Below, one piece after another: positions 24,915 to 47,472 of a stretch of DNA of 64,000 nt (position 1 is its first letter; each line of letters opens with the position of its first letter). Both the position numbers and the translations under genes were made by a program. The stretch comes from Marsupella aquatica (Eukaryota; Plantae; Marchantiophyta): assembly GCA_973895155.1 (NCBI GenBank), contig OZ316896.1:8949539-9013538 (forward strand), in the 5' to 3' direction. Under the pieces are notes generated by a model. That model did not search any database, was not told the DNA's origin, and was given only the letters and a program-made list of their open reading frames with translations.

Positions 24915-25067
24915 TCTAACCAAAATACCTGGGAGAACTATGCCTTGACTTGGTACAAGTCTTGGAAGAAGTCACAAGAGGACTCCTACTTGCCGTTAAC
25001 TTGGGAAAACCTAGTTGAGGTTCTTCGTGCTCATGTCACCACTAAGTATCTAGAGCGGAACGCTTAG
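24915..25067 (+). repeat. Ty3/gypsy gag-like fragment; left half of the target site of element A
   Basis: NYALTWYKSW...LTWENLVE.LR (retrotransposon gag-like). Near-identical copy at ~47520-47652. Confidence 0.65.
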
Positions 25068-25084
25068 AACCCCAATTTAAGGAA
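25068..25084 (+). repeat. Left TIR of element A
   Basis: AACCCCAATTTAAGGAA, the exact reverse complement of 47452-47468. Confidence 0.9.
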
Positions 25085-25863
25085 TACTGAAGTATTAGAT
25101 TAATTCCAATTTTATCTAAATATTATTAGTTAGTGAATGATCAACCTCTTTAACATTTGGTGGGATAGTCAAAAACTTCAAATGTTTTGTTGCAAGATCT
25201 TTATAACAATGCATCACTAAATGACATCAAGTACCTCTTGATCCATGCACAAATCCTTAATTAAACTGTCATTCATTATTTGTTTTAATTGTCTATTTAA
25301 TTACTATAGGGTTGAATACAAAAAAGATTGACACGCACCAGGGTGCGTGACCTACAATCATAGTAAGTACCACCCTTTAATTAGTTAGTTTCTTTACAAC
25401 AATTAATAGGATTGTTGTATATTACAATGTCTACTGGACATTCATTTGAATGTCAATAATATCATGCCTTAATATCACCAAACTAAGGCCCCACTAACTA
25501 ATATTATATCTTAAATAAACTAACCAACTAACTAACTTGTCTATTTAATTACTATAGGGTTGAATACAGAAAAGATTGACATGCACCAGGGTGGGGGACC
25601 TACAATCATAGTATCACCCTTTAATTAGTTAGTTTCTATTGCTTTGACTCAATCAGGCATGGAACCATATAAAATCAGAAATCATTGAAAGTTGAGTTCA
25701 CTTGAAGGTGTAACTATAATTATTATTTATTAATAGGATTGTTGTATATTACAATGTCTACTGGACATTCATTTGAATGTCAAAAATATCATGCCTTAAT
25801 ATCACCAAACTAAGGCCCCACTAACTAATATTATATCTTAAATAAACTAACCAACTAACTAAC

Positions 25864-28800
25864 TTAAATAGACAATAAGACTTGTCTAAACTTGAGTTCT
25901 CTGGCTTTGAGTTCTCGTGCTTTGAAACTCTCAGGAGGTTTATCTTTTGCTGGTCCCACATAATCCACTGTTGCCTCCAACTCACATGCCACATTTCGAT
26001 ATTCTGGTGGAACGTGCTCTCTCCATATTGATAAAGGCCAAAACCCGTATTCCAAGTTGTGTGCACCGTCAGGTTCATATTGCACCTGCTCACCCTGTAG
26101 AGTATCTACAATGTCATTCCAATAATTGATGAGAGTTGTCCAACGTCGCTTTGGTTCTTCCTCTTTTGTTCGCTTTAGAATAAACTCAAAGAATGAGACA
26201 TGCTTCTTCAACCCTGTCAGCACTTCAGGAAGCATTTTCAACTCCATCATTGGTAGCCGTTTGGGCACCCCAATTGGGATGTGAGGACTTTTGTCATCTT
26301 TCCATGACCACATTTCAATACCTTCCTTGGGTAACCATCCCTGATCAGTTGACTTCATTTTGTATTGGAAGCATGGCATACTATCATGACAAACATAGAA
26401 CCTAAACAGCCTGGGTTTTAAATGCCCCACCAATGCCTCAGGGCCCTTCAACATGAATGGAGCTAAGTAGCTTTTGAAATCCGGGACCTCCTGTAGAAAA
26501 TGTGGGACTGCATTGGGTGTCCTTGCTCTCATGAACAAGGACATTAACTCAGGCAATGAGTATGTGGGGTTATGCATCATAGACTCTGAAAAATGCCCAA
26601 ACATACCGTCAACGTCCTCATGAGTATGCCCAACCACCATAAAACCAAGATGAACCTCTTCAAACACCTCCCTTGCTGTCAACAATGACAAATAAGCCAT
26701 CATATATCTGTTCTTGTTGTCTGAGGCACAATTATCCAGTTATAACTTCAATACTCGTGGAAGGGGCCTGAACTTTGGTGCCTCAAGTGCTGCATCACAA
26801 TGTAACAATCTCAGAATGCTTTTAAATAAAACCCTAGTCAGACCCTAAACCCAATTTAGGGTTTAAACCCTATTAATGAAACCTTGGCTAGGAGGAGCAA
26901 CAACTACACAAAGTAGAGTGTCAGTGTGTGTGAGCTTATATTATTAAATAATAATAAATTAAAGGATTGTGAGTAAAGTACCTAGGCTTGAGATGTAGGC
27001 AATGTCATCCTCAAATGCTCTAAGGACACTTGCCTCCAAGATATCTTTTCTCCCAAAAAGGAGGTCTTTAAAAAGACTTGTCGAGTCTGGCCCCTCCACA
27101 AGTGATTTGATCATTGGATTTGGGTTTTCCAACATCCTTAGTATTGAATCAATTGACCCAATAGTGATGTTGACATCACCTGGCCACACTCCAACATGAT
27201 ATTGGGCTATGGCCTTGGGACCATGACCATGAGTAAGGATACCAGTGACAGTAATTGGGAACTTTTGGGCACCATCCACATGCTTAGGATTGAAGGGCAT
27301 TCTTGGGAGAGCTGTCTTTGAATGATCCATCTTATCATGAATAAGGCATAACACTTCCTTGGGACGATGGATGGACTCATATCTCCAGGTATGATAACAC
27401 ATTCTTTGCTGTGTGTGGTCTTGGTGATGTTCCTCCTCGTCACGCCTTAGGCCCTCTAACTCTTCCTTAGCTCCTGTAAGGTTTGCTTTCCGTTGAAGCA
27501 ACTCACTACAAGTTGTACACTTTGAAAAGTTGTTGCCCTTTTTGTGACGCGAGAACTCCCTGAAATACATCTGATGTAGATGACTCAAGGTGGGTTGGGA
27601 AATTGGAGGAAGACCAGCCTCCTTGTTGACAACATTAACCCTGTTTCTAATATTCTCCCAAGTAAGATTCGTTGGCAATTCCCTCAAAACCATCCTTGTA
27701 TTATCTGCCATGGTTCTCAACTTGGCTGGATGATGATCAGCTGCCTCCTCAATAATCTCTTTCATTGACATGAATGCTTGAGATACTTTCTCGGACATAC
27801 GCCTTTTTCCAACATTACCATGGGTACCTATGTTCATTCCAGCCATCACAGTCTTCTTCAAGGCATAAAATTGAGTCTTTCCTCTTGAATGAATGATTCT
27901 CCATGCCTCCAAGCACAATACTTTGCCCTCCACTGCTAGAATCCTTTCTCCAGTACCCAAGTGTATTGTATTTTTAATAGCCTTGATTTCCTCCTCCTTG
28001 CGCTTCACAAAAGATTTTGACCACCACTTTTGCCTAATTGCCATAGCCAAGTTGCGGTCCAAATATTGGCAACAATGTTCACTACAACAGTCCTTAGTGT
28101 TTATCAACAACACATCTTGACGCGCCAAAGATGTGTCTCTTCTAGATGTCTGGGAAGATGGACTCTTTCTTTTCCTACTTTTATGGACGTAGGACCGCTT
28201 GCCACTTGTTGGAGATGTGTTCCCTCCCACAGCTTGCCTGATGTTGTGGAAAGACAACAAGTTGCCATCCTTGGCAATGAGTTGGTCCATCGACCAAGCT
28301 TTTAAGCAATCTCTATGCTTCAGATGATCTATGGTAGCTCCCTCTACAAAATTGTTGATCAGAATTCCCACATGTGTATTCCCAAGGGTGACATCCCCAA
28401 GCTTCACTATAGGATCTAGAACATGTATAGTTGCCACTGCAAAAATCAACTTGTTCTCATCCACCACCTTTACAGGCATGCCCATCCACAAGGCCTTTGG
28501 TAAAACTACTTCCACACCAGACCGACTCTCATTATGGTTGTTCCCATCAGAATTTTGATTGACTGGATCTTGATCATCACCAACATTGCCAAACACATCC
28601 TCCGATTCCATGGGAGCTCGAAAAAGCTGATTCCTTTCCCATACAAGGTAACCCCCAATCATGTCCTTCAAAAGTTCGCCATCTTCGCATAGAATGGCCT
28701 CGTCAAAAACTTCCTCCAATAGAAGAAGAACTCTGTCCGCCCCAAGAGGAACATTGTGACAAACCCTGGAAGGATCAAGACTTATCATGCGACCTTTTCC

Positions 28801-28869
28801 AACCTGTTTCTCACGTATGCCTATAATAACTTGTCCGCCTTCCCTGATCTAGACTGTCGATGTCACCAT
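25864..28869 (-). pseudogene. DDD transposase, DUF7869/Sola-like (element A); one intron, premature stops, C-terminus truncated
   Basis: Motifs LIHDKMD, L*LDNCASDNKN, FMVVGHTHEDVD..F, CC..C and CTTC Zn-like motifs, and two N-terminal Tnp1/En-Spm-like repeats. Intron ~26981-26790 restores the frame. Stops at 28849-51 and 26740-42. Confidence 0.8.
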
Positions 28870-29890
28870 AATAATTATGATCCTGCACATCAGAGAATAT
28901 CACTGTAAGCGTACAGTCCTGTCACGTCCGTCAACTTCACTGCACTATCCTGTCACGTCGGTCAACAAGCAAAATGTAGTCAATGCACTGAACTGCACGC
29001 GACTGGTCGCGTGACCCTAGAGGTACCACACATACCGGCAATGACTACAATCGATTACGATCAATCATTTCACATCCACTCAGAAAAAATGAGTGGACAG
29101 TACCAGTTTACCAATGAGTGGACACTGGACAGTCAGTAACTACTGAGGACTGTAAGCAATAAGCGCCAGTAAAACGTCCGTGAACTGCATTGTCCTGTCA
29201 CGACCATCAACAAGTAAGCAGAATGAAGTCAATGCACTGTCCTGCATGCGACTAGTCGCGTGACCTTAGTCAGAGGGTGTAGGGATAATAGGGTCTACGA
29301 CATAGAAGCTAGAAGCCTAGGCCCAAACTCTAGCTCGTACTTGGTACTTCAGAAGTAAGATACGATTGCGCATGAGACAGTAAGATACAATTACAGATCT
29401 GAAGGCATCACACATAGTTACCGACAACAGATTATGCATGGTCAGTCAGTCATTTCAAGTGAATGAGAATGACTACAATTGATTACGAACAATCATTTCA
29501 ATTCCACTCAGAAAAAATGAGTGGACAGTACCAGTTTACCAATGAGTGGACACCGGACAGTCAGTAACTACTGACCCTCATAAGCAATCTCAGTACTTCA
29601 CTAGCAATCAGTATTCCCGGGGCGGTCGCCAAACGTGAAATTAAATGCAAAAATTGGAGGGCAACTGAACTTCCCGCCAATTCTAATACGCGCCAGTCAA
29701 ACGCGCACTCTCTTCTAGAAACCACTATGTACAGTGACTAGTGGAGACTAAACAGTATAAAGCATTGAGATGATCCCTACTGCTCATTCCCCCACGAATT
29801 CCACTTTCTGGCTACTGGATAATCTATTCGCACATCAGCTCTCTCATTTCCAATTCTTAGTCTCGGTCCGCATCCCTTGTTTGAAGGGCG

Positions 29891-30433
29891 ATGACTACTC
29901 CGCTGAGCTCAAAGAATGAGGATTTTCCGACGGATGATTCAGAAGATTCGACGTATCGAATTCGTGGTACTCCTTATAGAACGTGTCAGCGATGTAATAT
30001 AATGTTTACGGTGACTAAATCGGGTCAAATGTTTTGTGAGAGACGCCATTGTTCGCCACATTTGTCAATGGAAGATCAGATGGAGAGCAATCCGACAGAG
30101 ATGACTACAAAGATGGCACCAGGGGAGAAGTTAAAGGGCAAAGCCCTCGTCAAATCCGTTTCGGGGGGGGAGAAGTTGAAGGACAAAGCATGCGTCGAAT
30201 ACATTTCGGGTGAAGCAGCAGCAAACGCTAACACAGTCAAGAAGGAGGCCAAGAAAGTGGACGCTCCAAAGAAAAGGCAATTAGAGATGAACGAAGATTC
30301 TGATTTGTATTATAGAAAGAGCAAGCCGAGAAAATCTATGGACGTTAGGACTTGGGCAAAGGAAGAATTCCTGGATTCAAGGGAATCCACACCAGACACC
30401 GATGAGTGGATGCCTTCATCTTGGAATGACTGA
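29891..30433 (+). CDS. Hypothetical 180-aa element protein with Cys/His cluster (CQRC...CERRHC)
   Basis: Intact ATG-TGA ORF, TATA-like TATAAA at ~29756, basic K/R-rich C-terminus. Confidence 0.5.
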   Translation: MTTPLSSKNEDFPTDDSEDSTYRIRGTPYRTCQRCNIMFTVTKSGQMFCERRHCSPHLSMEDQMESNPTEMTTKMAPGEKLKGKALVKSVSGGEKLKDKACVEYISGEAAANANTVKKEAKKVDAPKKRQLEMNEDSDLYYRKSKPRKSMDVRTWAKEEFLDSRESTPDTDEWMPSSWND

Positions 30434-30679: not shown

Positions 30680-32400
30680 GGCCTCTAAAACATTAACGCG
30701 ACCAGGCGAAGACGTTGGTTTTAAATTAGATTGCTGGCCAATTCTTTGGGCTATCGACTACAATAAACAATATAAAAAAGACCTGAGATAAATTGGTTCA
30801 CGCGACTGTACGCGTGATGAAGTACATGTGTAACCGAAAAAAGAGGTCATCCAACTAACAAGTTGAGATCAGTCAAATCTAAGAAATAAAGCGCGATTAC
30901 GTTTAAGAGTGCAAAGCTTTCGATGACCTCTAAAACATTAACGCGACCGGGCGCGTCATGATACAAAGACGTTGGTTTTAGAATAGATTTCTGGCCAATT
31001 TTCTAGGCTGTCGACTACAATAAACAATACATAAAAAACCTGAGATAAATTGGTTCACGCGACTTTGCGCGTGATGAACTACATGTGTAACCAAAAAAAC
31101 AGGTCATCCAACTAACAAGTTGAGATCAGTCAGATCTCAGAAATAAAGCGCGATTACGTTTAAGAGGGCAAAGCTTTCGATGACCTCTAAAACATTAACG
31201 CGACCGGGCGCGTGATGATACGAAGACGTTGGTCTTAGAATAGATTTTTGGCCAATTTTCTAGGCTGTCGACTACAATAATCAATACATAAATTGGTTCA
31301 CGCGACTGTGCGCGTGATGAACTACATGTGTAACCGAAAAAACAGGTCATCCAACTAACAAGTTGAGATCAGTCAGATCTCAAAAATAAAGCGCGATTAC
31401 ATTTAAGAGGGCAGACCTTTCGATGACCTCTAAAACATTAACGCGACCGGGCGCGTGATGATACGAAGACGTTGGTCTTAGAGTAGATTGCTGGCCAATT
31501 TGCTAGGCTGTCGACTACAATAATCAATACATAAATTGTTTCACGCGACTGTGCGCGTGATGAACTACATGTGTACCCAAAAAAATAGGTCATCCAACTA
31601 ACAAGTTGAGATCATTCAGATCTCAGAAATAAAGCGCGATTACGTTTAAGAGGGCAGAGCTTTCGATGACCTCTAAAACATTAACGCGACCGGGCGCATG
31701 ATGATACGAAGACGTTGGTTTTAGAATAGATTGCTGGCCAATTTTCTAGGCTGTCGACTACAATAATCAATACATAAATTGGTTCACGTGACTGTGCGCG
31801 TGATGAACTACATGTGTAACCAAAAAAACAGGTCATCCAACTAACAAGTTGAGATCAGTCAGATCTCAGAAATAAAGCGCGATTACGTTTAAGAGGGCAA
31901 AGCTTTCGATGACCTCTAAAACATTAACGCGACCGGGCGCGTGATGATACGAAGACGTTGGTTTTAGAATAGATTGCTGGCTAATTTGCTAGGCTGTCGA
32001 CTACAATAATCAATATAAAAAAGACCTGAGATAAATTGGTTCACGCGACTGTGCGCGTGATGAACTACATGTGTAACCAAAAAAACAGGTCATCCAACTA
32101 ACAAGTTGAGATCAGTCAGATCTCAGAAATAAAGCGCGATTACGTTTAAGAGGGCAGAGCTTTCGATGACCTCTAAAACATTAATGCGACCGGGCGCGTG
32201 ATGATACGAAGACATTGGTTTTAGAATAGATTTCTGGCCAATTTTCTAGGCTGTCGACAACAATATAAAAAATACCTGAGATAAATTGGTTCACGCGACT
32301 GTGCGCGTGATGAACTACATGTGTAACTGAAAAATCAGGTCATCCTCCTAACTAGTTGAGATCAGCTGGATCTGAGAAATGGACCTCGATTACGTTTCGT
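30680..32400. repeat. Tandem array 1 of element A: ~7 units of ~243-257 bp, two ACGCG-N6-CGCGT palindromes per unit
   Basis: CTCTAAAACATTAACGCGACC recurs at ~30683, 30928, 31184, 31428, 31671, 31914 and 32171. Confidence 0.95.
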
Positions 32401-33859
32401 TTCGCTACGCCGTCGACTACAATAAACAATACCAAAACGTACGGACAACTATAATTGAACGCCATACAATTTTAGACTAGAGAATTCATTCGGATCCTCT
32501 ACTAGTACTTCTGATACATTGCTTCTATATTGGACTTGAAACACGGATTGATCAAAATCGGAGTGTGGAATTGGACCATAACTTCATTGACTCAATTCAT
32601 GCATTGAATGCGTGATTTAAGGCAACTATTCTCCTCATTTATTGCGGAATTAATGCTCATTGATACTTACAAGCTATTCAGTTGCGTGTGGACTCAACGA
32701 TGTTGGCGGCAACCCTCCTCCCAGCAAAGCCTCTTCCTTCCAGCGTAGCCTCCTCCTCGTCCCAGCAAACTAATCCTCCTCCTTCGAACTCCAATTTCCT
32801 TGAGTATCATGACCGAATCCCACCACCAGAGAATGAAACCTTGTTGATCGTATCGAGATCAAAATCCTTGACCAGACAGTGATTTCAGACTAGCCGCACT
32901 TTGTTGGTCCGCTAGAATGCTTCGATGAATGAGGCAGACTGGAGGTTCTAAATCTTTTGTCGTCCCGCTTGATCGGATGTGCCCTCCCCAAGAATGGGAT
33001 ACAATAAGAACTGCGCCAGCGTTGCTTGAATGAGCTTCGCCTCCGCCTGGAATAGACGAATGATCCAATATGCTCCACCTCAAATGTGCCTTGGATCAGC
33101 CTCCACTGAGAGCCCAGCTAGTATCCTGGTCAGGAGAAACTGAAAATGAAGAATGATCCGTGAGCAATGAGATCAGTCTATTGACTCCATGAGGGATGTG
33201 TTCATCTTGACTCGATTTTGATTTTGAAAATTGGTTCAGTCTCCAGTCGTGAGAATCATTGTACAGGATTTGGCACGATAGCTTCTTGAGTTTTGAATTG
33301 AGTTGCTATTCAACGCGCGAATAATCATACGGATCCGGTGTTCTCCACTTCCAAAATGGATTGATTTTGAATATCGGTTCTCCCCGACCATGAGAATCGT
33401 TTGACGTTGTTTAGAGTTTGGGTTTGAATTGGCAAGATAGAGAGTGGAGTACGGATCCGGATCCGACGGTCTCCACTACCAAAATGGAATGATTTTGAAG
33501 TTCGCCTCACTCCGATCGTGAGAAACTTGTCGTTTGTTCAGATTTTGGATTTGAATTGGCAGATATAGTGAAGATACGGATCCGGATCCGGGGGTCTCCA
33601 CTAACAATCTATCGCAGTCGCATAATTACCGGTTTAAATTTCAAATTGGCGATCAAATAGAAATCTCCTTTACCGGAATCCTTTTGATTTTCCGTACTAA
33701 TCTTTTTTTCACGATTGCATAGTTTGTTGAGTCGTTGGTGGAGTGTACGGAGATCATCTGGAACCTTCCTGTCGCTAGGCTGTTATTAGGGTTATGCTAA
33801 AACGATACCCTAATTAGTCGTTCCTTAGTGTTGGCGCCCACGGTCTCGAGTTCACTGTT

Positions 33860-34740
33860 CATTGTTGTTGATTCTCTCTCCTAGACTTTCGCACGCCTGC
33901 TCTCATCGCTCTCGCTCTCGCTCTCGCTCTCACTCTCGCTCTCGCTCTCGCTCTCGCTCTCGCTCTCACTCTCGCTCTCGCTCTCGCTCTCGCTCTCGCT
34001 CTCGCTCTCGCTCTCGCTCCTGCCCTGGATTTCATTTTCATCGTTGCAGCTCGTTCGTTATGGTCAGGTGCTGGTCGGCGCGTTGCAGCTCTTAGTAGTT
34101 GTCGATCGTTTCGGTCAGGAGCTCGTTGGCACGTTGCAGCTCGCATTTACAGCTCGTATTCACTTCTAGTTTGCTCGAAGGGATTCTTAGGAGCTCGTTG
34201 GGTTTGTTGCAGCTAGTTTGTTGGGAGTGTTCGTATCAGCTCATGTCAGCCAATTTTAAGCTCATATCAACTCCATCAACGTGTTTCAACAGATCGAACT
34301 ACTTTTTGGCAGCTTGTTTCAGCTCCTTTCATTCATCATTCAGGTTTGTTTCAGCTCTTTCAATCTTCAGGTTTAGTGCGCTTTTATTCATGCTCAGTTT
34401 GTCTATCGACAACTTTGATTGTACTTCAGGAATAATCTTTTTAACTCGACATAATGAGTTCCATAGCATTAAGCACATGTTATTCAATTGGCAGCAGCGA
34501 AGCTCTATATAGAAGCTGTGTTATTGTTGCTTAGCATATTTACTTTCTGGAATGCCGCAGCAAGGTCTTCAAGTGCTTGGACGTCAATCTCTCAAACGAT
34601 TACAACACTTTTTCAGAATTCAGGTGCAATTTCTACATTTTCTGTTGGTGTTGATTGTTGTTTGCTAAAATTTCTCTTGATTGTTAAGCTGAGTTTGTCT
34701 GTAAACTCAAATATGTCTGAATCATACAAACTCACTAATT
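33860..34740 (-). pseudogene. Degenerate coiled-coil ORF ending in a (GAGCGA)n Glu-Arg microsatellite
   Basis: (CTCGCT)n at ~33905-34020 on the + strand. The minus strand upstream reads as E/K/L/Q-rich helical sequence with many stops. Confidence 0.4.
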
Positions 34741-35149
34741 AAAATACAACCTGAATTGTATTAAGTAAGTCATTACAAACCTGCACGCTGTGAAATTTAA
34801 TCATATAAACTCTCATGTTATGTGAATCTCATTACACTGAATCATTTAATTGACGAATACAACCAGTAGACTGCTAAATTGAATCATCTTAGCTGAATCA
34901 TTCTCTAAACTGAATTCCATGCAATCTGAAAACTTCTGATATATAATAGTTTCACAATGACAGAGCTCAAACATCTGAGTTATTGTAAAGTTCACGAATG
35001 AATACTAGTGTGCTTGAATCATTCAATAAATGCATCATTGCACTTTTCTAGTTCAAAAACTCATGCTTACTCGGATTTCCCTGTCCGTACGGGTCAGTAA
35101 TCACAGTTGTATCACTGTATTATCCTAGTGTCCAAAAGTGGTTTGAGCT

Positions 35150-36905
35150 GTTGACGCGACCAGTCGCGTGAGAAGATTGTGAGGTTCCATTTTAGGGTCA
35201 GTTGACGCGACCAGTTGCGTCTGAGGGAGCTCTCTCATTGACTGGTTCCGTTAGAGGAGGTATGGTTCCATTTAGGACCAGTCGCGTGTGAAGGAGACAT
35301 GATAGATTATTGAGCGCGTTTAGGGTTTAGGTTCAGTTGACGCGACCAGTCGCGTGTGAGGTAGCTCTCTCATTGACTTGTTCTGTTAGAGGTATGGTTC
35401 CATTTAGGATCAGTTGACGCGACCAGTCGCGTGTGAGAAGGAGAGGATAGATTATTGAGCGCGTACCATATCCAAATCTCCACAAGGAAGGTTCAGTTGA
35501 TATAGTTGTTTAGGTTTAGTTGATACGACCAGTCGCGTGTGAGGTAGCTCTCTCATTGACTGGTTCTGTTAGAGGTATGGTTCCATTTAGGATAAGTTGA
35601 CGCCACCAGTCGCGTGTGAGTAGGAAACAGGATAGATTATTGAGCGCGTATCATATCCAAATCTCCACAAGGAAGGTTCAGTGGATATAGTTGTTTAGGT
35701 TTAGTTGACGCGACCAGTCGCGTCTGAGGTAGGTCTCATTGACTGGTTCTGTTAGAGGTATGGTTCCATTTAGGATCAGTTGACGCGACCAGTCGCGTGT
35801 GAGAAGGAGAGGATAGATTATTGAGCAAGTACCATATCCAAATCTCCACAAGGAAGGTTCAGTTGATATAGTTGTTTAGGTTCAGTTGACGCGACCAGTC
35901 GCGTGTGAGGTAGCTCTCTCATTGACTAGTTCTGTTAGAGGAGGTAAGGTTCCATTTAGGATCAGTTGACGCGACCAGTCGCGTGTGAGAAGGAAACAGG
36001 ATAGATTATTGAGCGCGTATCATATCCAAATCTTCACAAGGGCGGTTCAGTGGATATAGTTGTTTAGGTTTAGTTGACGCGACCAGTCGCGTCTGAGGTA
36101 GGTCTCATTGACTGGTTCTGTTAGAGGTATGGTTCCATTTAGGATCAGTTGACGCGACCAGTCGCGTGTGAGAAGGAGGATAGATTATTGAGCGAGTACC
36201 ATATCCAAATCTCCACAAGGAAGGTTCAGTTGATATAGTTGTTTAGGTTCAGTTGACGCGACCAGTCGCGTGTGAGGTAGCTCTCTCATTGACTGGTTCT
36301 GTTAGAGGAGGTAAGGTTCCATTTAGGATCAGTTGACGCGACCAGTTGCGTGTGAGAAGGAAACAGGATAGATTATTGAGCGAGTATCATATCCAAATCT
36401 CCACAAGGGCGGTTCAGTGGATATAGTTGTTTAGGTTTAGTTGACGCGACCAATCGCGTCTGAGGTAGATCTCATTGACCGGTTCTGTTAGAGGTATGGT
36501 TCCATTTAGGATCAGTTGACGCGACCAGTCGCGTGTGAGAAGGAGGATAGATTATTGAGCGAGTACCATATCCAAATCTCCACAAGGAAGGTTCAGTTGA
36601 TATAGTTGTTTAGGTTCAGTTGACGCGACCAGTCGCGTGTGAGGTAGCTCTCTCATTGACTGGTTCTGTTAGAGGAGGTAAGGTTCCATTTAGGATCAGT
36701 TGACGCGACCAGTTGCGTGTGAGAAGGAAACAGGATAGATTATTGAGCGAGTATCATATCCAAATCTCCACAAGGGCGGTTCAGTGGATATAGTTGTTTA
36801 GGTTTAGTTGACGCGACCAATCGCGTCTGAGGTAGATCTCATTGACCGGTTCTGTTAGAGGTATGGTTCCATTTAGGATCAGTTGACGCGACCAGTCGCG
36901 TCTCT
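35150..36905. repeat. Tandem array 2 of element A: ~180-bp units (higher-order ~360-bp dimer) with ~20 ACGCGACCAGTCGCGT palindromes
   Basis: GTTGACGCGACCAGTCGCGT recurs at alternating ~75 and ~105 bp spacing. Confidence 0.95.
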
Positions 36906-36984
36906 CTCATTGACTGGTTCACGTGACCCAAAAAATCACAATCTCCAAAAGAATTGTTCAGTAGACGCGACCAGTCCATTTGGC

Positions 36985-37536
36985 ATGGGGGAACCTAGTC
37001 TGGAGAGCTTCAGATATCTATGCCCAATATTTGACGTTTTGGACAGAAGCCAAGATGGTCTACTGGCGGGATATTCTGTATTTGTTGAAAGACTACTACC
37101 TGGACTTCCAGATTTCATTGTCGCGGAATTGATATGGCCTCGCACCAAGGAGTCCTTGAATTCCTCGGCTAATGCAGGAAATTTCTCAATAAAGGAATTG
37201 GATGAGTTTGTAGGACTATCTTCGGTATGTCGTAGATGGCGCCACCTTGTTGGGAATACCTATCTTCTGGGTGTAATCAAGTTGAGTTTATTAGATTTGG
37301 CTTCCCCAGGAAATCCTAGTAAACCGATCCAAAATGAGTCTCTCTCATCGACAGTTCAAAGTTTCTTCCAGAAATACCCAAGAATTAAATTTATGGGGTC
37401 AATGTCCAGAGATCTAAGGGAACTCTTCACGAAGACTTATGATGCTCTTCACCCTCTTGAAAAATGGAAATTTACAGTCAGATGCCACGAAGTTGGATAC
37501 CTTGAGGGTGACATCTATGCTTTTAAGGAATTCTAG
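36985..37536 (+). CDS. F-box-like protein 1 (cargo)
   Basis: LLPGLPDFIVAELIWP ... SSVCRRWRHLV. Confidence 0.6.
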   Translation: MGEPSLESFRYLCPIFDVLDRSQDGLLAGYSVFVERLLPGLPDFIVAELIWPRTKESLNSSANAGNFSIKELDEFVGLSSVCRRWRHLVGNTYLLGVIKLSLLDLASPGNPSKPIQNESLSSTVQSFFQKYPRIKFMGSMSRDLRELFTKTYDALHPLEKWKFTVRCHEVGYLEGDIYAFKEF

Positions 37537-37600
37537 TTAACTTACGTGACCAAGCGCGTCGTATGTCTTCTAACAATGTTTTGTATATGATAAAAGCAGG

Positions 37601-38125
37601 ATGAGCCAACTTTTGAATGAGGCTCGAGATTTCCTTTCATCTCATGAAAGGAAACAAAAAACAATATGGGATACGCTGGATGAAACCTCCTCTAGTCTCA
37701 TTGGAGGAATACCAGATGTTTTGGTCATTTCAAACATTTGGCCAATACTCTACAAACACTTTATTTCAATTGAAGAATTGCCTGGATATCGACACCCCGA
37801 GATTGATTTGGTTATGGATAGGGTCCAAGACCTTATTCGGCTTGGAGCTTGTAGCAAGAAGTGGAACTTTTTAGTTACAAATACAAGGTTATGGGCTATC
37901 CTCAAACAAGCAAACCGGATTGTCGATGTCGCAAATGATGCTCTTTACGACATACCCAAAACTGACAAGTTGGAGTTTGACTCAGTCTGTTGAGCTATTC
38001 GACAGGATATTTCTATGCTTCCAGAAATATATGTTCTTGGGACTACTACTTCTGACAAAATCTCATTGTTTACCAACAAATATAACAATTTAGATGAGGA
38101 AGAACGAGATGTCCTAATCGAAAGG
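37601..38125 (+). pseudogene. F-box-like protein 2 (premature TGA at 37991)
   Basis: LIGGIPDVLVISNIWP ... ACSKKW. Similarity to paralog 3 continues past the stop (ISMLPEIYVLGG vs IRTLPPLDILGG). Confidence 0.6.
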
Positions 38126-38201
38126 TTTGGTAGATTTTCTCAGAATCTCTGTGGTCCCAGTTCTTAATTGATAGGTTCTTGTTCTTAATCTTTTCCATAT
38201 T

Positions 38202-38732
38202 ATGTTGCAGTCCTTTGACATGAATCGAAAATCTCATCGTCAAATGATGATGGAGCGCATTGCACGTGCAAAGGTTATGAACCGAAATATGATATGGAGT
38301 CAAGCTGAAGACCTGATACCCGGTCTTCCGGACGATATTGTCGAGAAATATATTTGGCCATTAGTCAAAGAGTTTTTCCACTGTCTTGGGAATTTGTCGG
38401 ATAATGCGATTAAAAATCGGGTCATGGACTTGATCGCCATTCGGACAGTCAGTAAGAAGTGGTGCCACATAGTTACTTATAGTAGTACTTGGGCGACGGT
38501 CACCTTGGTAGCTTACGACTTCACTGATAGACCAGGATATGAATCGCTTCGAAGGTATTTGACTTCACGGAATGTAGCATTCAGATTTATAGAATCCATC
38601 AGAACTCTCCCGCCGCTGGACATTCTGGGTGGATTTGTAGGATTTGAACTTGACACGTTTAGGAACCTTTGGTTTTGGTTAGATGAAGATGAGCGAAAGG
38701 ATTGGGTCAAGGAAAACATTCCTAAAATGTAA
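38202..38732 (+). CDS. F-box-like protein 3 (cargo)
   Basis: LIPGLPDDIVEKYIWP ... RTVSKKW. Confidence 0.65.
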   Translation: MLQSFDMNRKSHRQMMMERIARAKVMNRNMIWSQAEDLIPGLPDDIVEKYIWPLVKEFFHCLGNLSDNAIKNRVMDLIAIRTVSKKWCHIVTYSSTWATVTLVAYDFTDRPGYESLRRYLTSRNVAFRFIESIRTLPPLDILGGFVGFELDTFRNLWFWLDEDERKDWVKENIPKM

Positions 38733-38807
38733 TTCGGCACGACGCGACCATGCGCGTGTTAGTATTTTATAATAAATGTTTAACTTTCAATATTTGTCTA
38801 TTTCAGA

Positions 38808-41800
38808 ATGGATCATACCGGAACTTCAAAGCGGAAAAGAGACTCGTCTAAACCTGCTTCTCAAAAGAAAGCCAAGACAAGAACGACTCCCGTGGAGACA
38901 TCCATACTTGCATATCGAGGAAAGTCAATCAGAGAGAGAACAACGGAGACAAAGAGTATCCATCTCTTTGATTCGACTGAGATATCCGATCTTGGAATAG
39001 TCGTTGACAATGGGGCTGTCCGTCGTGTGGTGGCAAAAAATGATAAAGCTACAGTTTTGGAGAGATCACAAATTCTTGGGTGTTTGTTTGAGAAGAGCAT
39101 GAAAGTGAAAGAGTGTATAGAAGGATTGGTTCTGCTAGTCAGCGACGACCAGCAGGATGACAAAATAAACATTTGTTTGGATCGAACGCAATATGTAACC
39201 TTCAATCAGTCCAGAATCGATGATCTTCTAGGTGCAAGGCACGCTTTGGAAAAGGTTACTAGTGTGGGATACCCTTCCGATCCAGAGGGATCAACGGGAG
39301 ATTTGATTTGTCAATACATTATTGATGTACTTGAGTTCCAGAGAGTTCCTTTCAACCAGGGATTTTGCTTGGGAAAGGCCCCCCCAGTGACCAAGGTTGA
39401 AGTATACTCGGCGGAGAATCTTTCGAAAGTCATTACCTCAGCGAATGTCGGGGCTCTGTTCGATTCTTTCCTCAAAGAATATAGTGCTGTGAATATATTT
39501 AACAGCAAGTCATTTTTTGTTGAGACATCACGTTGTCATCTTGCACCGGACCACATCAAGTGCCGAGAGTGGAATCAGGATTACACAGATAGGCTAAAGA
39601 ATTCACTCCTCTCTCATTCGGCTATAAAGTTCGAAAAGCGATGCTACTTTTTAGTCCCTGTGAAGTGGGTTCAGTCGGAGGCCGACAGAGATCCCAACTA
39701 CAATGGGACACCCTACGATTCGGCGCCAACGGAGGAGGACATTATGACCAGTCATTTTTGGATACTCGGAGGCCAGCACACAATAATGGCGTACAAATTG
39801 CTGAGGATGGACGACAAAGTCAGCCAAGTTGTTCGGGACGCATGCGGTACAGTAGAAGCTGTAATGTTTTGGGCAACTCTCAACAACGACAATAATGTTC
39901 ATTTGATGGGACTATCGAAGGCTCTGAACCACTGTCATCAAACATCAATGGAAGAAGGATAGTTTCTCACCATTGTACCTCAGTGTCGTAATATCTGGAA
40001 CTCATTCGGGCGGCCTAGATCACATTATCGTCATCCAAATTGGAAGGTATATAAATAACCATCTTCCCTAAACCCTAAACATTATCTTTTAAATGTTTTC
40101 TCACGCAAACGGTCGCGTCAATCTTAGAATATTCATGTTTCCATTGTTTTTCAGGTATTTATGAGAGCTACGAGTTTTGTTTGCCCATGGGCTCAAATGG
40201 GGAAGAACGAAATGATGAAATTTGGAGAATTGGCTCCATTTCTCTTTACAATGGAGGACGAAACATTCAAGAAGTGGATGGAGGTCTACGAACTATCAAG
40301 GACAGGAGAGCTTGTAATTTACAACGGAATTTTACAGAGAGACGCCGTCAAAATTGCGGATAATCCATGTGCTTATCATCTCCTTAAGAAGACGTTCCGT
40401 TCTTGTCAAGGGTGCTCGGACTCGGTTCTTCGAAAGGCAGCGGAATATATGTTGAGCGGAAGACTGTCTATACTCAAAAACCGAAGCATCAAAGTGAAAT
40501 CTGGGAAGGCGAGGAAGTCCTCTGAGGCTCCGGTGTTGTCAACGACCATCATGAGTTTGGAGCAATTCTGTATAAAGAAGAAGACGAAAGTTGAGTTTGA
40601 GATTTTATTATTGAGTAAACTCAACGGGGATACATCCACCCGGACGGAGCTGAAAAGTCTGACAGATTCAGCGCGGAAATTGCGGGTCAACGGAATGATT
40701 GATCGCTTTAAGCTCGACAAGATGGTGCTGAAGCAGTTGAGAGATGCGTTGAGTGGTTATCTGAAGAAGTGCTTAAATGTAAATATTAGTAATGATAATT
40801 TGTTGAAGGAGATAGACCCGATATTCTACAGGTTGGTGGAAGGAATACAGAAATCAGTTGATAGTCAAGGAAACCAACTAGTGCGGCCGGTCGGTGAGAG
40901 GCTGAAATTGCGATCTCTGCAGGATATACAAAATGCTGGGTTTGCAGACTGTATCATACGTGAAGACAAGAACCTTGCGAGCTTGATTTATTTTGATTCC
41001 TCATCAATGGGAGATTTGCGTCCGCCAAATTGCTCATTCTATGAGGGGTTATTTTGTGCTACTAGCGAGATAGGGGCAAAACCACACCATGTGGTTATTA
41101 TTGTAGCCTCTCCCGTTGAGTCTTATTTAATCAAACGGGAATTAGGGAAGTACACACACTACGTTGCTGTCGATAACCATTATATTCAAAAGCGGCCAAA
41201 GGAGAAGAAGCTTATTGTAACCTACGCTTTTCACAGCTTGGCCTTCAGCACAATGGGCGATCCACAAGCCCTCGAGTTCCAGTTGGTCTCCAAATATCGG
41301 ATTGATAAGATAGCCAATTTTGAAGAGAGCGGCGAGTTTACGACACCTTCCCCAGAAAAGATACTTCCATTCTTTGAAAGTATTGTTAGTCAATTCGTCC
41401 AATGTGGGGAATGGGCTATATGCTTCGGCGAGGGAACGAACTTGATCCAGTGCCTAATGGTAAGTTTTGAGATTTATATTTTGGGGTTTCGATTTTAAGA
41501 TTATTTGGATTTTCATATTCTCAATTAATATTGTGAACTAATTTCGGCTTGTTTTACAGGATGCTGGATCCAATGTAAAATATTACTGCCCTGTGGCAAC
41601 GCATAAGGAGTTGTCTTGTTTCTTGCAACACACCACGGCGACAATTGATACAACGCTGTCATTGATTGACCCAATACGGGCTAGTATAGAAAAATGTATA
41701 GATAAATTAATGAAGTACCGTCCATCCGTAACTGCTCTCAGGGCTGATGTCTTGGATGTCCTCCACGAACAACATATCCCAGATAATATTTGTAATCAAT

Positions 41801-43697
41801 TATTGCAAGAGTATGCCCTCTCTGAAGATTCCAATCGATTGTACATTCGACCAACGGAGTACCCTCGTGGGCCATTCCAAGGTAGGTTACTTTTGAACCC
41901 TCTTACTTTTTCTTGGGTCACGCAAACATGCGCGTGGACATTCTCAACATTTCTTTCTAATCTAATGATCTGATTTTCTTCAGATCAAGTCGAACGCGGC
42001 TCCAATGTTGAGGATGCAGGGAGCAATGGTGATGCGGATGGTGAGGGGGAAGGAGACGCGGAAGGTGACGCGGATGGGGATGTCAATGACCAAGATCCAG
42101 AGTGGATGACCGATACCCAGAACGACGTCGGATATTCTGACAAAAGCGAGGAAGAGAGTGACGGAGAGGAGATGAAGGACGTTGAGGATGATGAGGACGC
42201 TGAGGACGCTGAGGACTCTGAGGACGCTGAGGACTCTGAGGACGCTGAGGACTCTGATGAAGAGGCCACAAAGGGCCTTGTCATGAGGCGGACCAAGAGG
42301 AGGCGGCCCGGCAGGAGGACGCCCGGCAGGAGGCGGCCCGGCAGGAGGCGGCCCAGCAAGAGGAGCTTCAAAAGAAAGAGGCGGTCCGACAAGAGGCGGC
42401 CCGGCAAGAGGCGGCCCGGAAGGAGGAAGCCCGGCAGGAGGAGGCGACCCGGCAGGAGGAGGCCCGGCAAGAGGAGGCCCGACAAGAGGAGGCCCGACAA
42501 GAGGCGGCCCGGCAAGAGGAGCTTCAAAAGAAGGAGGCTAAGAAGAAAAAGGCGGCAGCTAGAAAAGCAACTGCCACAAAGAAGAAGGAAAAAGCCGACG
42601 CTGAGAAAGCCCAGGCGGAAAAAGCCCAGGCTGAAAAAGACCAGGCGGAGAAAGCCGAGGCTGAGAAAGCCAAGGCTGAGAAATCCCAGGCTGAAAAAGA
42701 CCAGACGGAGAAAGCCGAGGCCGAGAAAGCCGAGGCCGAGAAAGCCAAGGCCGAGAAAGCGGAGGCGGAGAAAGCCCAGGCTGAGAAAGCCCTTTTAGTG
42801 ACCGAGGAAAATAGGGCCGAGGCGGAGAGAGCCGAGGCGGAGAGGCTGCTGGCCAAGAGGATGGCGGACCAGAGCGAACAGACCGCAAGACCGGAGAGGG
42901 AGGAGGCGGAGGAGGCACAAAAGGTTGATTCCGCAAGACTGGAGAGAGAAGATACCGCAAGACTGGAGAGGGTGGAGGCGGAGAAGGTAGAGGCAGCGAG
43001 GAGGGAGGCCGAGAGGGCCAAGGATCTTTCGCTTATTCCTGAAGCACAACGTCTACCGAAAATAAAGCTGAATTTGAAGAAGCCTTCTTCACCCTCGGTT
43101 GCAGTTAAGAAGAAAATATTAGACTATTTTCTTCGGCCGGAGTTTGAGTTTAACGATCCACCCTTAAGAACGGTCTCGTTGGATGATTGGAATAAATATT
43201 CACCGGAGCAGCTCCGAGTCCAGGCTATCTTGGCTTTGCAATATTGGAAGGGTCTTTTGATTACCGAGGAGAAGACTTCCACTGCATCCAGAATGGAGAC
43301 AATCATCAATAATGTCCGATTTTCCGAGAATCGAGTGCAAGACCTGGGAATATCTCTGGCACCAGACTCGGCTCAAGTCGTTAAGAGACTAACAGCTGAG
43401 TTGATGCGACCGGGTTCGTGGTCTCGACCCCGATATACTGCAGAGGTCACTCGCGCGGAAATTGTGGCCCCGGATATTTTGGAATCGGATTCCCAGATTG
43501 TTGAATATTTAAATCAAATGCCACAACCATTCGAAGGTCTTCCTGCCTCATCGCTACAACCTTCGCAAACTGGTCCGTTGGAGCGATCACTGCGGTCTCG
43601 AGGAGGGTTGAAGGATGTTGTTGCGAAGGAGGCACCCAAGAGATCAGCTGTGAAAAGGCCGGATCCACCCAATCCAAAGGTCATCCGCAAGCTATAA
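38808..43697 (+). pseudogene. Large spliced protein: ParB/Srx-like domain + degenerate beta-class N4C/N6A MTase fold + acidic tract + EAARQ/AEK coiled-coil repeats
   Basis: FWILGGQH at ~39760; EKILPFFESIVSQFVQCGEWAICFGEG at ~41355. Frame-preserving introns 40047-40154, 41460-41559 and ~41882-41983. Stop at 39960 and frameshift at ~42280. Collinear similarity to the element B gene. Confidence 0.65.
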
Positions 43698-43829
43698 GCT
43701 TAAAGTTTCTATTATAACAGTCATTATTTTATTATTGATTTGTTATTGTTTCTGTTTTCTGAGGTAGAACCCTTAGGCTACAACCTCAGTACGTTATTTG
43801 AAGGCGTACTGAACCTCTGTTTTTTGCAG

Positions 43830-45605
43830 TTTTTTGAAAATTTGGCTAGTCGAATAGATCAATGCCTTGATCCTTCTAAGGATATGGAAGAGCTATTGAC
43901 CAAGTTCTTACAACACTCGATCAAGAGAAAACATATGATGTGTCTGAGACCACGCGAGTTGCTCACTGATGATATAATTAACGCTTATTTGAGTTTTCTC
44001 GAACTGATTCTCGATAGAGTTGGAAAGTCAGACCTTGTCAAATTCTTCCAAACACACCATTTTGAGCTTCTCTCCATGGATCCTACCATTTTCGATGAGA
44101 GAGCATCTTGGACAAAGGAGTTTCCGCTGAGAATCAATGAATACGACAAACTGGTCTTTCCAGTACACAATGCCGTGAAAGAACATTGGTCATTGGTAGT
44201 TGTGTATCCGAAGGAGAAACGGCTCGAGTATCTAGATTCCCTAGTTCATAATCGACAGAATCCTGGGGTGCTAGATATTGTTGGGAAGTATTACGCCGAC
44301 GAAATTGGCTGGAGAACTGGTGTCAACTTGGATCTCTCAGGTTGGGAACGGATATATCGGAATGATATTCCTCACCAGAGTGACGGGCATAGTTGTGGTG
44401 TGTTTATCTTGAGATTCGCCAAGTGCTTGTGTCAAGGAAACGAAATTAATTTTTCCGCGGATCAAATTGAGAAATTCCGTAGGGAGATAGTCTTGTCGTT
44501 ATTTGACATGGACTTCCGCAAGCCGACGTCCGCAAATAACCTAGTTATCGGGATCCGTGCTGCTATGATTGACATTGGCGGAATTGAAGTACTGAACGAC
44601 CGTCTTGTACAGGTAATACACTTCATTTCAGTATCTCTTTGTAGTCACGCGACCATTCGCGTTATAAACTTATTTTCATTTCTTAATGTTTTACAGAAAC
44701 CTATCCTGAAACCCCTTGATCGAGTATCGAAGGCACCAGTTTGGAAGTCCGATGATCGTCGTCTGGAGGCGGGAAACAAACAGACCGTTCTAGTCTGTTC
44801 TCCAAACCCTACGACACAAAAGTCACAGGTACAGATGGCGCCTAAACCATCGGCGCAGAAGTCACCGGTTCAGAAGAGACTTGTAATTTTTGATCTGAAT
44901 CGGGTACTTATCTGGTCAGAGAAGATCATCCCTGGGATGCCCATTCGGTCAAGGGGGGTGAGACACATGTACAAGGTTATCTATCCAAGGCCTGATTTAA
45001 TGGAATTTCTTCAGAAGGTGGCAGATCTATACGACATTGCGATCTGGTCATGCATGATGAAACGGAATATTCTATCTTGTTTAAGGCTGATACTTCGACC
45101 CGAAGTTTTGAAACGTATTAAATTTATATGGGGACAAGAATCAACTCGACCTATTGGGAAGAATAATAATGACATCCCCTTATTTGTCAAATGTCTCTCT
45201 GACATTGCCGCCGATATTAAAGATTACAACATCGAAAATGTCATTCTTATCGATGATGCTGCATATAAGACGAGCCTTAATAACTTCTACTCATCGTTGT
45301 ATCCCGATGCATATTCTGGGCTCGATGATGACATATTTTTTAGAAAGAAACTATATCCATATCTATGCGACATGTCAATTGACAAGTTGACATTTCGCCG
45401 GCTCCTTAGTGACCATGGGATTCCAACGTTCTCTCGCGAGAATCTTGAGAAAGATTATATTGATAAGGCGAATCTTTGGAGGAGAAATGTGATCATTCGT
45501 AATCAGGGGAATAAAGACCATTTAGAAAATTTTGACGAATATATGAAATACTTATCTGCCGAAAAAGACCGTACTATAGAAGCCCGGGATAAGTCCGATA
45601 AGTAA
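43830..45605 (+). CDS. Ulp1/SENP (peptidase C48) domain fused to an FCP1/NIF HAD-like domain
   Basis: LTDDIINAY, EHWSLVV, YLDS and HQSDGHSCGVF give an intact H-D-C triad. LVIFDLNRVL, RPDL.EFL, IAIWS and ILIDD follow. Likely in-frame intron ~44613-44696 and AG acceptor at 43829. Confidence 0.88.
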   Translation, partial: FFENLASRIDQCLDPSKDMEELLTKFLQHSIKRKHMMCLRPRELLTDDIINAYLSFLELILDRVGKSDLVKFFQTHHFELLSMDPTIFDERASWTKEFPLRINEYDKLVFPVHNAVKEHWSLVVVYPKEKRLEYLDSLVHNRQNPGVLDIVGKYYADEIGWRTGVNLDLSGWERIYRNDIPHQSDGHSCGVFILRFAKCLCQGNEINFSADQIEKFRREIVLSLFDMDFRKPTSANNLVIGIRAAMIDIGGIEVLNDRLVQVIHFISVSLCSHATIRVINLFSFLNVLQKPILKPLDRVSKAPVWKSDDRRLEAGNKQTVLVCSPNPTTQKSQVQMAPKPSAQKSPVQKRLVIFDLNRVLIWSEKIIPGMPIRSRGVRHMYKVIYPRPDLMEFLQKVADLYDIAIWSCMMKRNILSCLRLILRPEVLKRIKFIWGQESTRPIGKNNNDIPLFVKCLSDIAADIKDYNIENVILIDDAAYKTSLNNFYSSLYPDAYSGLDDDIFFRKKLYPYLCDMSIDKLTFRRLLSDHGIPTFSRENLEKDYIDKANLWRRNVIIRNQGNKDHLENFDEYMKYLSAEKDRTIEARDKSDK

Positions 45606-45730
45606 ACATTTATTGTTTATTTTCAATTATTATTTATAAATTGATTGAAATTGAACTTTTGGGAGTGACGCGCCCGGTCGCGTGGTTGTTTGCAATTGCA
45701 TAATATGAGAATCGACTTGTTCATTTACAG

Positions 45731-46438
45731 GTGTCTAAGTGGAGCAGGTCGCGTCAACTTCTAGTTTTAGGACTGGAAAACTTCCTATGCTCTGTTTCAA
45801 AATATACTCCTCAGCTTAAGTCGACACCCGGAATTTGTATCGAATCTCTATGTGTCGTTCCGAGGCTGCATCTTCATGATCTTATAAAATTCTATTATGA
45901 TCATTTTGATGTGATGGTCTGGTCTATTCTCGACGATAAACTGGTTTATCAGATACTTTCAAAAGTGTTGTCGAGCACCGACCTGTCGCAGCTGATATAT
46001 GTGTTCACGCGGGATCATTGCTGGAATCTTGGTTATGTGAAGAAAAATTATAAGACTGTTGTCTTCAAATCTATCGAGAGACTACGTGATATGTTTCAAG
46101 ATTATCGACCAGAGAATATAATCCAGATTGATGCCTCTCCTTCCCATACATGCCACAGCGCTGTATGCGGATTATTGTTCGCTAAGTCGTTTCAAGGATC
46201 GTTGGATGATGTCTTTTTGAGGGATGACCTCATTCCATATTTACGAAAGCTATGGGATTCAGGGCTCTATCTTGCATTCGCTAACAAGTTCGATTATCCC
46301 ATCTGGTCGATTAGAAATCTACATCGAGATTGGGATCTGAACGAGGATATATGGGAGCATCTGTACGTGCAGAGACATGCGGATCAAGTTCTTATCAAGC
46401 ACTTCAATAGATGTCACTTATCAATGGCCAGAGTGTAG
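45731..46438 (+). CDS. FCP1/NIF-like HAD-fold paralog 2 (catalytic DxD motif lost)
   Basis: LLVLGLENFL, PRLHL, FDVMVWS, ENIIQID. Preceded by an AG acceptor. Confidence 0.75.
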   Translation: MSKWSRSRQLLVLGLENFLCSVSKYTPQLKSTPGICIESLCVVPRLHLHDLIKFYYDHFDVMVWSILDDKLVYQILSKVLSSTDLSQLIYVFTRDHCWNLGYVKKNYKTVVFKSIERLRDMFQDYRPENIIQIDASPSHTCHSAVCGLLFAKSFQGSLDDVFLRDDLIPYLRKLWDSGLYLAFANKFDYPIWSIRNLHRDWDLNEDIWEHLYVQRHADQVLIKHFNRCHLSMARV

Positions 46439-46527
46439 AGGATGTTGGCTGTCTGTAATATTTGACGCGACCATTCGCGTGACTACGTCCATACGGGCTC
46501 ATGCATCTTCTTGTGTTTCTCTACAGG

Positions 46528-47158
46528 AGAATCATTGCAGCAGAGAAAATGGGCTCATAGTTTTAGACGTGGAGCATCTACTCTGTTACACTGCACGGCA
46601 TTCCCGACTGATGGCGGTCTCGACTGGAATTCGGATTGGGAATATATACGTTTTTCCAAGGCCTCATCTTCACGAATTCTTGAGATTCTGTTTTGAGAAG
46701 TTTGATGTAGGGATCTGGTCCTCTCTTGGGAAGAGCCTTTTAGATCAGATTTTAGCATCTATTTTTACTGCGATGGAAATGGCCTCATTTAAGTATATTT
46801 GGGATGAGTCTCATTGTTACTTATTTATACGAAGGCGTATCTGCAGCAAAATATAATGCTTATCGATTCCGATGCATTTCATGCTTGTTTAGATCCTGTT
46901 GTTGGATCATTATTTCCGCCCAAATATTTTGGGTCGGTCGACGACAGTTTCCTGATTAACTTGCTGATTCCGTATCTTAGCAAGCTAGCAAAATCTTGTG
47001 AGCCGCTTGTCATTGCCAATGGAAGAGATTATCCTGATTGGTCAGTTAAATCTATTTTTAGAGATTATGATTATAATCATACTATATGGGAAGACCCTGT
47101 GATTCAGAGGCATGGAGATAGATATCTAGTAGAGCAATTTAACAGACGCCCAATTTAG
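46528..47158 (+). pseudogene. FCP1/NIF-like paralog 3 (frameshift/deletion at ~46825)
   Basis: LIVLDVEHLL, PRPHLHEFL, FDVGIWS, then NIMLIDSD in another frame. Clear similarity to paralog 2. Confidence 0.75.
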
Positions 47159-47451
47159 GACGCTTCCGAAATAATAGTCGGCATGAGATCAGATTAATTT
47201 GTATTATCGTTCTAGAAACGATTTGTAATCTCCCTATATACTGGTTATCATATATAAAGGATCTCAGAGATTTATTTCTCTTTTGTTATTATTTGCGTGA
47301 GCATGTCTCTTGGTCCCGTCAAGTTGGAGTGCGTCAAAAATCTTAGTTGCAGTCATTTTCAGGGTTTCACGCGCAATGACGCGTCATGTCTCCCCCTTTT
47401 TATATTAAAATAATAATATTTAGTGATTTTCAGAATTTCCAAAGTTTGGTT

Positions 47452-47468
47452 TTCCTTAAATTGGGGTT
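47452..47468 (-). repeat. Right TIR of element A
   Basis: TTCCTTAAATTGGGGTT followed by the TTAG TSD. Confidence 0.9.
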
Positions 47469-47472
47469 TTAG

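Follow-up and report, generated by a model that had tools for sequence, protein, structure and literature searches.

A defective giant Sola1-like transposon in the liverwort Marsupella aquatica and a palindrome confined to its non-coding DNA

Giant transposons with ParB-like cargo

Sola elements, which are present in moss, are mostly 2-9 kb long, with some exceeding 15 kb (PMC10741241). A giant example, Sola1-1_Ec32 of Ectocarpus, measures 21,549 bp, ends in AACCG..CGGTT, is flanked by a 4-bp target-site duplication (TSD) and has a 282-bp imperfect terminal inverted repeat (TIR); on the strand opposite its transposase lies a gene for a 1104-amino-acid protein, ParB-like and N4/N6-methyltransferase-like, which is proposed to bind and modify its own element (PMC12477816). 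An element of very similar plan is present in the liverwort Marsupella aquatica, within a 64,000-nucleotide stretch of DNA (GenBank assembly GCA_973895155.1, contig OZ316896.1, positions 8,949,539 to 9,013,538 of the forward strand), referred to below as the window, whose own coordinates are used throughout. It is probably a defective giant cut-and-paste transposon of the Sola1 type, inserted with a 4-bp duplication into a host repeat, whose ParB-like protein would bind the element's own palindromes to keep it expressed.

The likeness to Sola1-1_Ec32 is extensive: both elements are about 22 kb long, end in AACC..GGTT, have a 4-bp TSD (PMC12477816) and encode opposite the transposase a ParB-like protein, perhaps with a methyltransferase-like region in Marsupella as well, of 1104 amino acids in Ectocarpus and 1057 codons, up to a frame change, in Marsupella. 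They differ in that the Marsupella TIR is 17 bp long and perfect, and in that the methyltransferase motifs are eroded in Marsupella. Giant size and ParB/methyltransferase cargo are not new, having been published for the Ectocarpus element; what the liverwort element adds is further cargo (F-box-like and NIF-like units, three of each, and an Ulp1 protease), a restricted palindrome, a neighbour with a different palindrome, and a contrast in CpG content, while no cis motif is described in the text compared for Sola1-1_Ec32 (PMC12477816). The initial annotation of this DNA held that described Sola members are only a few kb long and read the locus as a new giant lineage. The first claim is overtaken by the lengths given above and the second by the shared plan, which largely places the element in a giant family already described. 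In its DDD transposase, 4-bp TSD, non-flowering plant host and a length that can exceed 15 kb, it also resembles moss Sola1 elements such as Sola1-1_PPa (PMC10741241, PMC9033089, PMC12477816).

Similar cargo occurs outside Sola. Giant Plavaka (EnSpm) elements of the red alga Bostrychia, 17-19 kb long, carry a ParB-like gene beside tandem inverted-repeat arrays and a methylase-like gene, and a VANDAL-like self-binding idea has already been proposed for the Plavaka PAG2/PAG3 elements (10.1101/2025.02.11.637652). The Marsupella element shares the ParB-like accessory gene adjoining tandem arrays and, with less certainty, a methylase-like component, but the Plavaka transposase belongs to another superfamily, PAG2 carries a fused SET domain and PAG3 a fused 2-oxoglutarate (2OG) oxygenase, and the text compared reports neither dispersal of a motif from intron to intron nor a family-specific motif pair.

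VANDAL elements are Mutator-like, a defining trait; the Marsupella transposase, a DUF7869 protein, has no Mutator-like element (MULE) match in Pfam, and no VANC homologue was detected in the element. In Arabidopsis, the short motifs bound by the anti-silencing protein VANC lie in introns, between genes and within tandem repeats, and each family has motifs of its own (PMC5735166, PMC10398659). The layout is shared: the short family-specific motif of the Marsupella element is likewise concentrated in tandem repeats, in predicted introns and in non-coding DNA between genes and towards the ends. In contrast, VANC motifs are 8-9 bp long and non-palindromic, and binding and demethylation, demonstrated for VANC, are inferred here. 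Starships, finally, offer a parallel in DUF3723, the mark of the atlas clusters nearest to the ParB-like domain and a recurrent cargo of these giant fungal elements, which differ in using a DUF3435 tyrosine recombinase rather than a DDD transposase and TIRs (10.1101/2021.12.13.472469); DUF3435 has no Pfam match among the 15 ORFs (open reading frames) of the Marsupella element that were scanned. The liverwort element thus very probably belongs to Sola1 and works like its Ectocarpus relative, and resembles VANDALs in motif layout only. In the literature searched, neither this combination of cargo nor a defined cis motif for any Sola element was found; parts of the picture may already be in Repbase entries, Bao 2009, Iyer 2011 and supplements.

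Element ends and transposase

The left TIR (25068-25084, plus strand, AACCCCAATTTAAGGAA, with an AACCC... terminus) is a perfect 17-bp reverse complement of the right TIR (47452-47468, minus strand); the outer TIR bases enclose 22,401 bp, and TTAG stands on either side (25064-25067 and 47469-47472). Past about 25 bp the similarity between the two ends becomes patchy (81 bp compared). Perfect inverted pairs of 17-mers number 97 in the window, and this is the only one with 4-bp direct flanks. The element splits one unit of a host repeat, and the next unit (47505-47690, plus strand) runs uninterrupted across the insertion point, agreeing with the left flank (24917-25069) in 92% of 153 columns and with the right flank (47469-47509) in 95% of 41. 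The ends, duplication, length and empty site proposed in the initial annotation all stand. Two details qualify this picture: the direct repeat at the junction is really TTAGA (5 bp), and the empty site is a paralogous copy of the repeat, not an allelic one. The 4-bp register, taken from this single site (25064/47469), is chosen because it yields symmetric ends; two alternatives were rejected, as a 5-bp register needs asymmetric ends and a TA register a terminal mismatch, and the flanks break at 25068.

Has the family inserted elsewhere? Contigs from four public runs were aligned to 24900-27100. In run X6, the match of at least four of them ends exactly at 25068, beyond which their sequences differ from one another (median 192 letters, agreement 0.54), and uninterrupted host-repeat junctions are present, among the matches listed, in runs X3, X4 and X6. 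This confirms the left end and shows that members of the family sit at other sites too, where the left boundary proposed in the initial annotation recurs. Two metagenome scans, with 414 and 37 pattern matches, confirmed no relatives with flanks. Contig read depths, which lie about 300-fold apart between runs of one organism, were left out of any estimate of copy number. The host repeat that surrounds the insertion lies just upstream of a Helitron and is represented by very deep contigs in runs X3 and X4.

The transposase is encoded on the minus strand by two ORFs that join over a predicted 192-nt GT-AG intron (26790-26981) into 930 codons with one stop. Three database relatives (P0001, P0003 and P0004) lose similarity at the donor of this intron. 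Exon 1 (26982-28848), whose start codon is provisional, carries a CxxC motif (444/447) and D505; exon 2 (25864-26789) matches DUF7869 in Pfam with an E of 4.5e-31 and carries D641 and D683. A search for relatives gave 1973 with an E of 0.001 or less; 34 of the 150 listed are at least 480 amino acids long, and among these D505 is conserved in 28 (the other six having gaps), D641 in 33 and D683 in all 34. The three residues are inferred to be the catalytic DDD triad of an RNase H-like transposase. A DUF7869 protein of Riccia sorocarpa is a relative, with 33% identity to exon 2; together with the intron style and the depletion of CpG, it points to a host that is probably a non-seed land plant.

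The stop, a premature TAA at codon 639 (26740-26742), is private to this copy: all covering contigs, in four of four runs, read CAA (Gln) there. Since other copies encode Gln, the present copy is dead and the family not uniformly so, a defect that the initial annotation overlooked. Programmed read-through or editing of the stop was rejected, because the other copies have CAA in their DNA. The intron contains plant telomere-like repeats (26840-26870), to which the X3 contigs add one 7-bp unit.

Is this a Sola1 transposase, or do DUF7869 transposases form a separate clade that merely resembles Sola1? In the published Sola1 profile, position 53 is a nearly invariant glutamate (W-x-E) that has no clear counterpart in the Marsupella protein, which tells against Sola1 membership. 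The profile's consensus near the second Asp and the GH motif (positions 82-102 and 112-123) agrees by eye with the Marsupella sequence (PMC5751038). Also on the side of a separate clade, no publication naming DUF7869 was found in the literature searched; such a clade is nevertheless improbable, given the agreement of these motifs, the 4-bp TSD, termini and a layout like those of Sola1-1_Ec32, and the fact that the best Repbase match of Sola1-1_Ec32 is a moss transposase, that of Sola1-1_PPa (PMC12477816). The tie between a DUF7869-type ORF and transposition drawn in the initial annotation is thus supported, as is the picture of a giant, cargo-carrying, Sola-like TIR element with a DDD transposase, and DUF7869, common in liverwort annotations, gains a documented link to TIR transposition. 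From what is known of such families, the transposase very probably would bind the TIRs, excise the element and insert it through a 4-nt staggered cut, the present copy being mobile only in trans.

The element-specific palindrome and its candidate binder

The most interesting feature of the element, not mentioned in the initial annotation, is a 16-bp palindrome, ACGCG-N6-CGCGT. Allowing at most one mismatch, it occurs 42 times inside the element and not once in the 41.6 kb of the window outside it. It is confined to the element's non-coding DNA and its spacing is fixed at 6 bp: among other spacers inside the element, those of 0-5, 7 and 10-15 give no copies, 8 gives 13 and 9 gives one. Thirty-two of the 42 copies lie in two tandem arrays, one with 6.8 units of 243-257 bp and two palindromes per unit (30707-32397), the other with 8.6 units of 183/367 bp and two palindromes per 183 bp (35145-36901). 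The palindrome was defined from these arrays, after they had been inspected, so that the dispersed copies alone form an independent test, a limit that has to be set against the case made here; outside the arrays there are 10 copies in 18.8 kb, as against a mean of 0.07 and a maximum of 2 in 300 shuffles. Two of these, at 28997 and 29246 (28997-29261), lie upstream of the transposase; the remaining eight stand singly between 37544 and 47384 (at 37544, 38742, 40103, 41920, 44647, 45668, 46465 and 47369). All eight fall in non-coding gaps (predicted introns and spacers), which occupy 13% of the cargo region (36986-47468): eight of the 11 gaps hold a single palindrome and three hold none. Ten of 11 mismatches are C-to-T or G-to-A, fitting decay of methylated CpG. 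The TIRs lack the palindrome, and near the ends there are one good copy (47369) and one with two mismatches (25333); the latter sits in an internal duplication of about 250 bp (25320-25640), downstream of the transposase, that varies among copies.

Two recent algal genome papers leave open whether accessory proteins of this kind bind and modify their own element. In the window there is a well-defined candidate for such a target, a palindrome that is restricted to the element, constant in its spacing and present once per predicted intron or spacer. A dimeric protein encoded by the element would probably bind ACGCG-N6-CGCGT. Which protein would this be? The best candidate, at a little short of an even chance and ahead of the transposase, is the ParB-like protein, which would load at the palindromes as at parS sites and perhaps spread from them.

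The gene in question is predicted to have four plus-strand exons (38808-40046, 40155-41459, 41560-41881 and 41984-~42290) encoding a ParB/Srx-like domain, an eroded N4/N6-methyltransferase-like region and an acidic tail. Three predicted GT-AG introns leave a single frame of 1057 codons with one stop, a TAG at codon 385 (39960), on which the only evidence comes from protein relatives: two relatives lack a stop at this site and end at the same donor. Relatives that are 45-53% identical over both accessory exons keep the gene, and their exons end at the same points. The N-terminal domain of the Marsupella protein scores 0.95-0.96 against atlas clusters in which DUF3723 occurs in 31-98% of members; of the first 11 Foldseek rows for the domain model, 10 are Srx/ParB chains, with a non-significant E of 0.16-0.9, and the best VIA match is KorB (Z 2.7, root-mean-square deviation 4.6, 85 aligned). 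The predicted domain can be called ParB-like with moderate confidence. Exon 2 scores 0.80-0.84 against N6_N4_Mtase atlas clusters, a lead only; to judge by its motifs, the methyltransferase-like region looks catalytically eroded in this element family, which makes a role in marking DNA with N4-methylcytosine or N6-methyladenine (4mC/6mA) less likely than a role in binding or as a scaffold. An E/A/K-rich repeat ORF with coiled-coil-like composition (42261-43697, plus strand) lies one frameshift, near 42270, off the acidic exon and possibly belongs to the same gene; an Arg-rich frame at 42279-42798 was rejected as a gene and read as a shadow frame of this repeat.

From about 53.4 kb to beyond the end of the window (53410-64000) there is another, distantly related DUF7869 element, with a layout like that of the first: a broken minus-strand transposase (54046-57659), about 20% identical to the first in exon 1; 73-bp and 65-bp tandem arrays; and a plus-strand ParB-like/methyltransferase-like gene (61230-61904 spliced to 62239-63999) with 812 codons and no stop. 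Its palindrome is different, GCCTCGC-N7-GCGAGGC, with 13 copies between 59574 and 62132, three of them in the intron of the ParB-like gene at the matching position. The methyltransferase-like exon of this gene matches N6_N4_Mtase with an E of 0.0046, below the Pfam cut-off, and a PDB sequence search with the methyltransferase-like part gave no methyltransferase match. A neighbouring family with its own palindrome is a built-in control for specificity.

That the palindromes differ between two elements whose transposases have diverged so far would also be expected if the transposase itself were the binder, for internal synapsis or self-activation, and the ParB-like gene had some other role. The N-terminal region of the transposase is long and contains Cys motifs, and sequence-specific activation of cognate copies by transposases is reported in a recent study (10.64898/2026.08.24.746577). 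This explanation is the less likely one: the palindrome is missing from the TIRs, most copies lie in the central arrays and in cargo introns, and ParB-like genes adjoin inverted-repeat arrays in the unrelated Plavaka elements as well.

The palindrome might instead act in RNA, as a hairpin or in splicing, or be a host transcription-factor site that was copied along with duplicated exon cassettes. Cargo palindromes do lie about 50-65 nt upstream of acceptor-like sites, the three NIF exons all begin in phase 0, and the NIF and F-box units are internally duplicated. However, short introns force the distance to the acceptor, and only one of six tested palindromes folds clearly better than shuffles, weak folding that favours a protein site over a hairpin, as do the fixed spacing and variable centres. 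A host site is at odds with the absence of copies from the 41.6 kb of flanking DNA and with the copies in introns that are not duplicated (40103 and 41920). Either version is improbable, and binding by a protein of the element remains the preferred reading.

What would binding achieve? By analogy with VANC, it might limit CG methylation over the cargo, with the SUMO protease helping, although this step is doubtful. The ratio of observed to expected CpG (o/e) is 0.30-0.31 in the transposase exons of the first element vs 0.74-1.08 in the cargo, and in windows with the motifs masked it is 0.31 vs 0.89 (P 0.0004). The contrast is suggestive only, because a Helitron and a host ARM gene in the window are CpG-rich too, and the transposase and cargo may differ in origin. 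In an ambitious version of the proposal, rather unlikely as a whole, giant plant Sola1 elements would have turned a bacterial-style ParB/parS module to anti-silencing: the ParB-like protein, its methyltransferase part dead, would act as a clamp, load at family-specific palindromes of 16-21 bp in arrays and introns, spread, and with the SUMO protease keep the cargo free of CG methylation, each family having its own motif-protein pair, independently of VANDAL/VANC. If true, sequence-specific anti-silencing would have arisen in plants a second time, independently, and the motif-protein pairs could be used for programmable targeting of chromatin.

Several observations weigh against ParB-like self-binding as an anti-silencing mechanism. 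The structure models of the accessory gene are both poor (pLDDT, the predicted local distance difference test, is 42 for the N-terminal domain; 44 for the other model). Exon 2 has no Pfam match, lacks a DPPY/NPPY/SPPY-type motif and has an eroded glycine loop, and fold searches with its low-confidence model returned no usable match. Homology between the accessory genes of the two elements is marginal (hhalign E 0.0007, probability 26%) and not significant for exon 2. Palindrome-bearing DNA is not uniquely CpG-rich, the CpG o/e of the Helitron being 0.95 and that of the ARM gene 0.78. All introns are predictions, and the mechanism is built on sequence and predicted structure.

Other cargo and neighbouring DNA

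The rest of the cargo lies mostly downstream of the arrays, on the plus strand. Three F-box-like ORFs (36986-37536, 37601-37993 and 38205-38732) match Pfam below the cut-off, with E of 0.001-0.02. A predicted two-exon gene (43830-44612 and 44697-45605) encodes an Ulp1/SENP protease fused to a first NIF-like domain, the protease matching SENP1 with an E of 2e-18 and the catalytic His, Asp and Cys in place. NIF-like domains 2 (45731-46438) and 3 (46527-47158) each start at a predicted phase-0 acceptor, and the third has a frame change near 46810-46855. A DxDxT-type motif is not intact in any of the three. Both the NIF-like and the F-box-like units are internal duplicates. A phase-0 donor follows the first Ulp1 exon (44613), and phase-0 acceptors precede the three NIF exons (44696, 45730 and 46526), each after a palindrome. 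The three NIF-like exons are possibly mutually exclusive terminal exons. The initial annotation had counted about ten genes, which agrees with the nine or ten ORF units present, but alternative splicing could mean fewer genes. Upstream of the arrays lies a plus-strand ORF of 182 amino acids (29885-30433) with no family match, and an NCBIfam search gave no relevant match. Together, the F-box-like and NIF-like proteins and the SUMO protease would suit a counter-defence role at the level of chromatin or transcription.

Could the locus instead be a small Sola1 element with unrelated nested insertions or host fragments, the cargo being no functional unit? Several cargo ORFs are indeed broken in the present copy. 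Yet one palindromic motif recurs throughout the interior, the cargo, all in one orientation, is collinear, both accessory exons have relatives in which the exon ends are the same, and the layout is common to the neighbouring element and Sola1-1_Ec32; nested insertion is thus very improbable, and a single cargo-carrying element is by far the better description.

Between the two arrays, a stretch of 2.7 kb (32400-35100) has no long ORF, contains short repeats that include GGATCC and a (TCGCTC)19 run, and is CpG-rich despite few palindromes. In the second element, the 73-bp array (57888-58330) holds a further imperfect palindrome of the GTCGG...CCGAC type, distinct from GCCTCGC-N7-GCGAGGC. A TIR look-alike at 53410 has 13 of 18 matches and is tied with three other sites. 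In both transposases one and the same Gln codon, two positions ahead of the second catalytic Asp (26740-26742 and 55392-55394), has become a stop, which looks like coincident decay, because other copies of the first element have Gln. The two elements are separated by the Helitron, with Rep and PIF1 helicase ORFs (Pfam PF14214 and PF05970; 49121-52711), and the ARM gene, an intronless 745-codon ORF of ARM/HEAT repeats (8122-10359), is probably a host gene.

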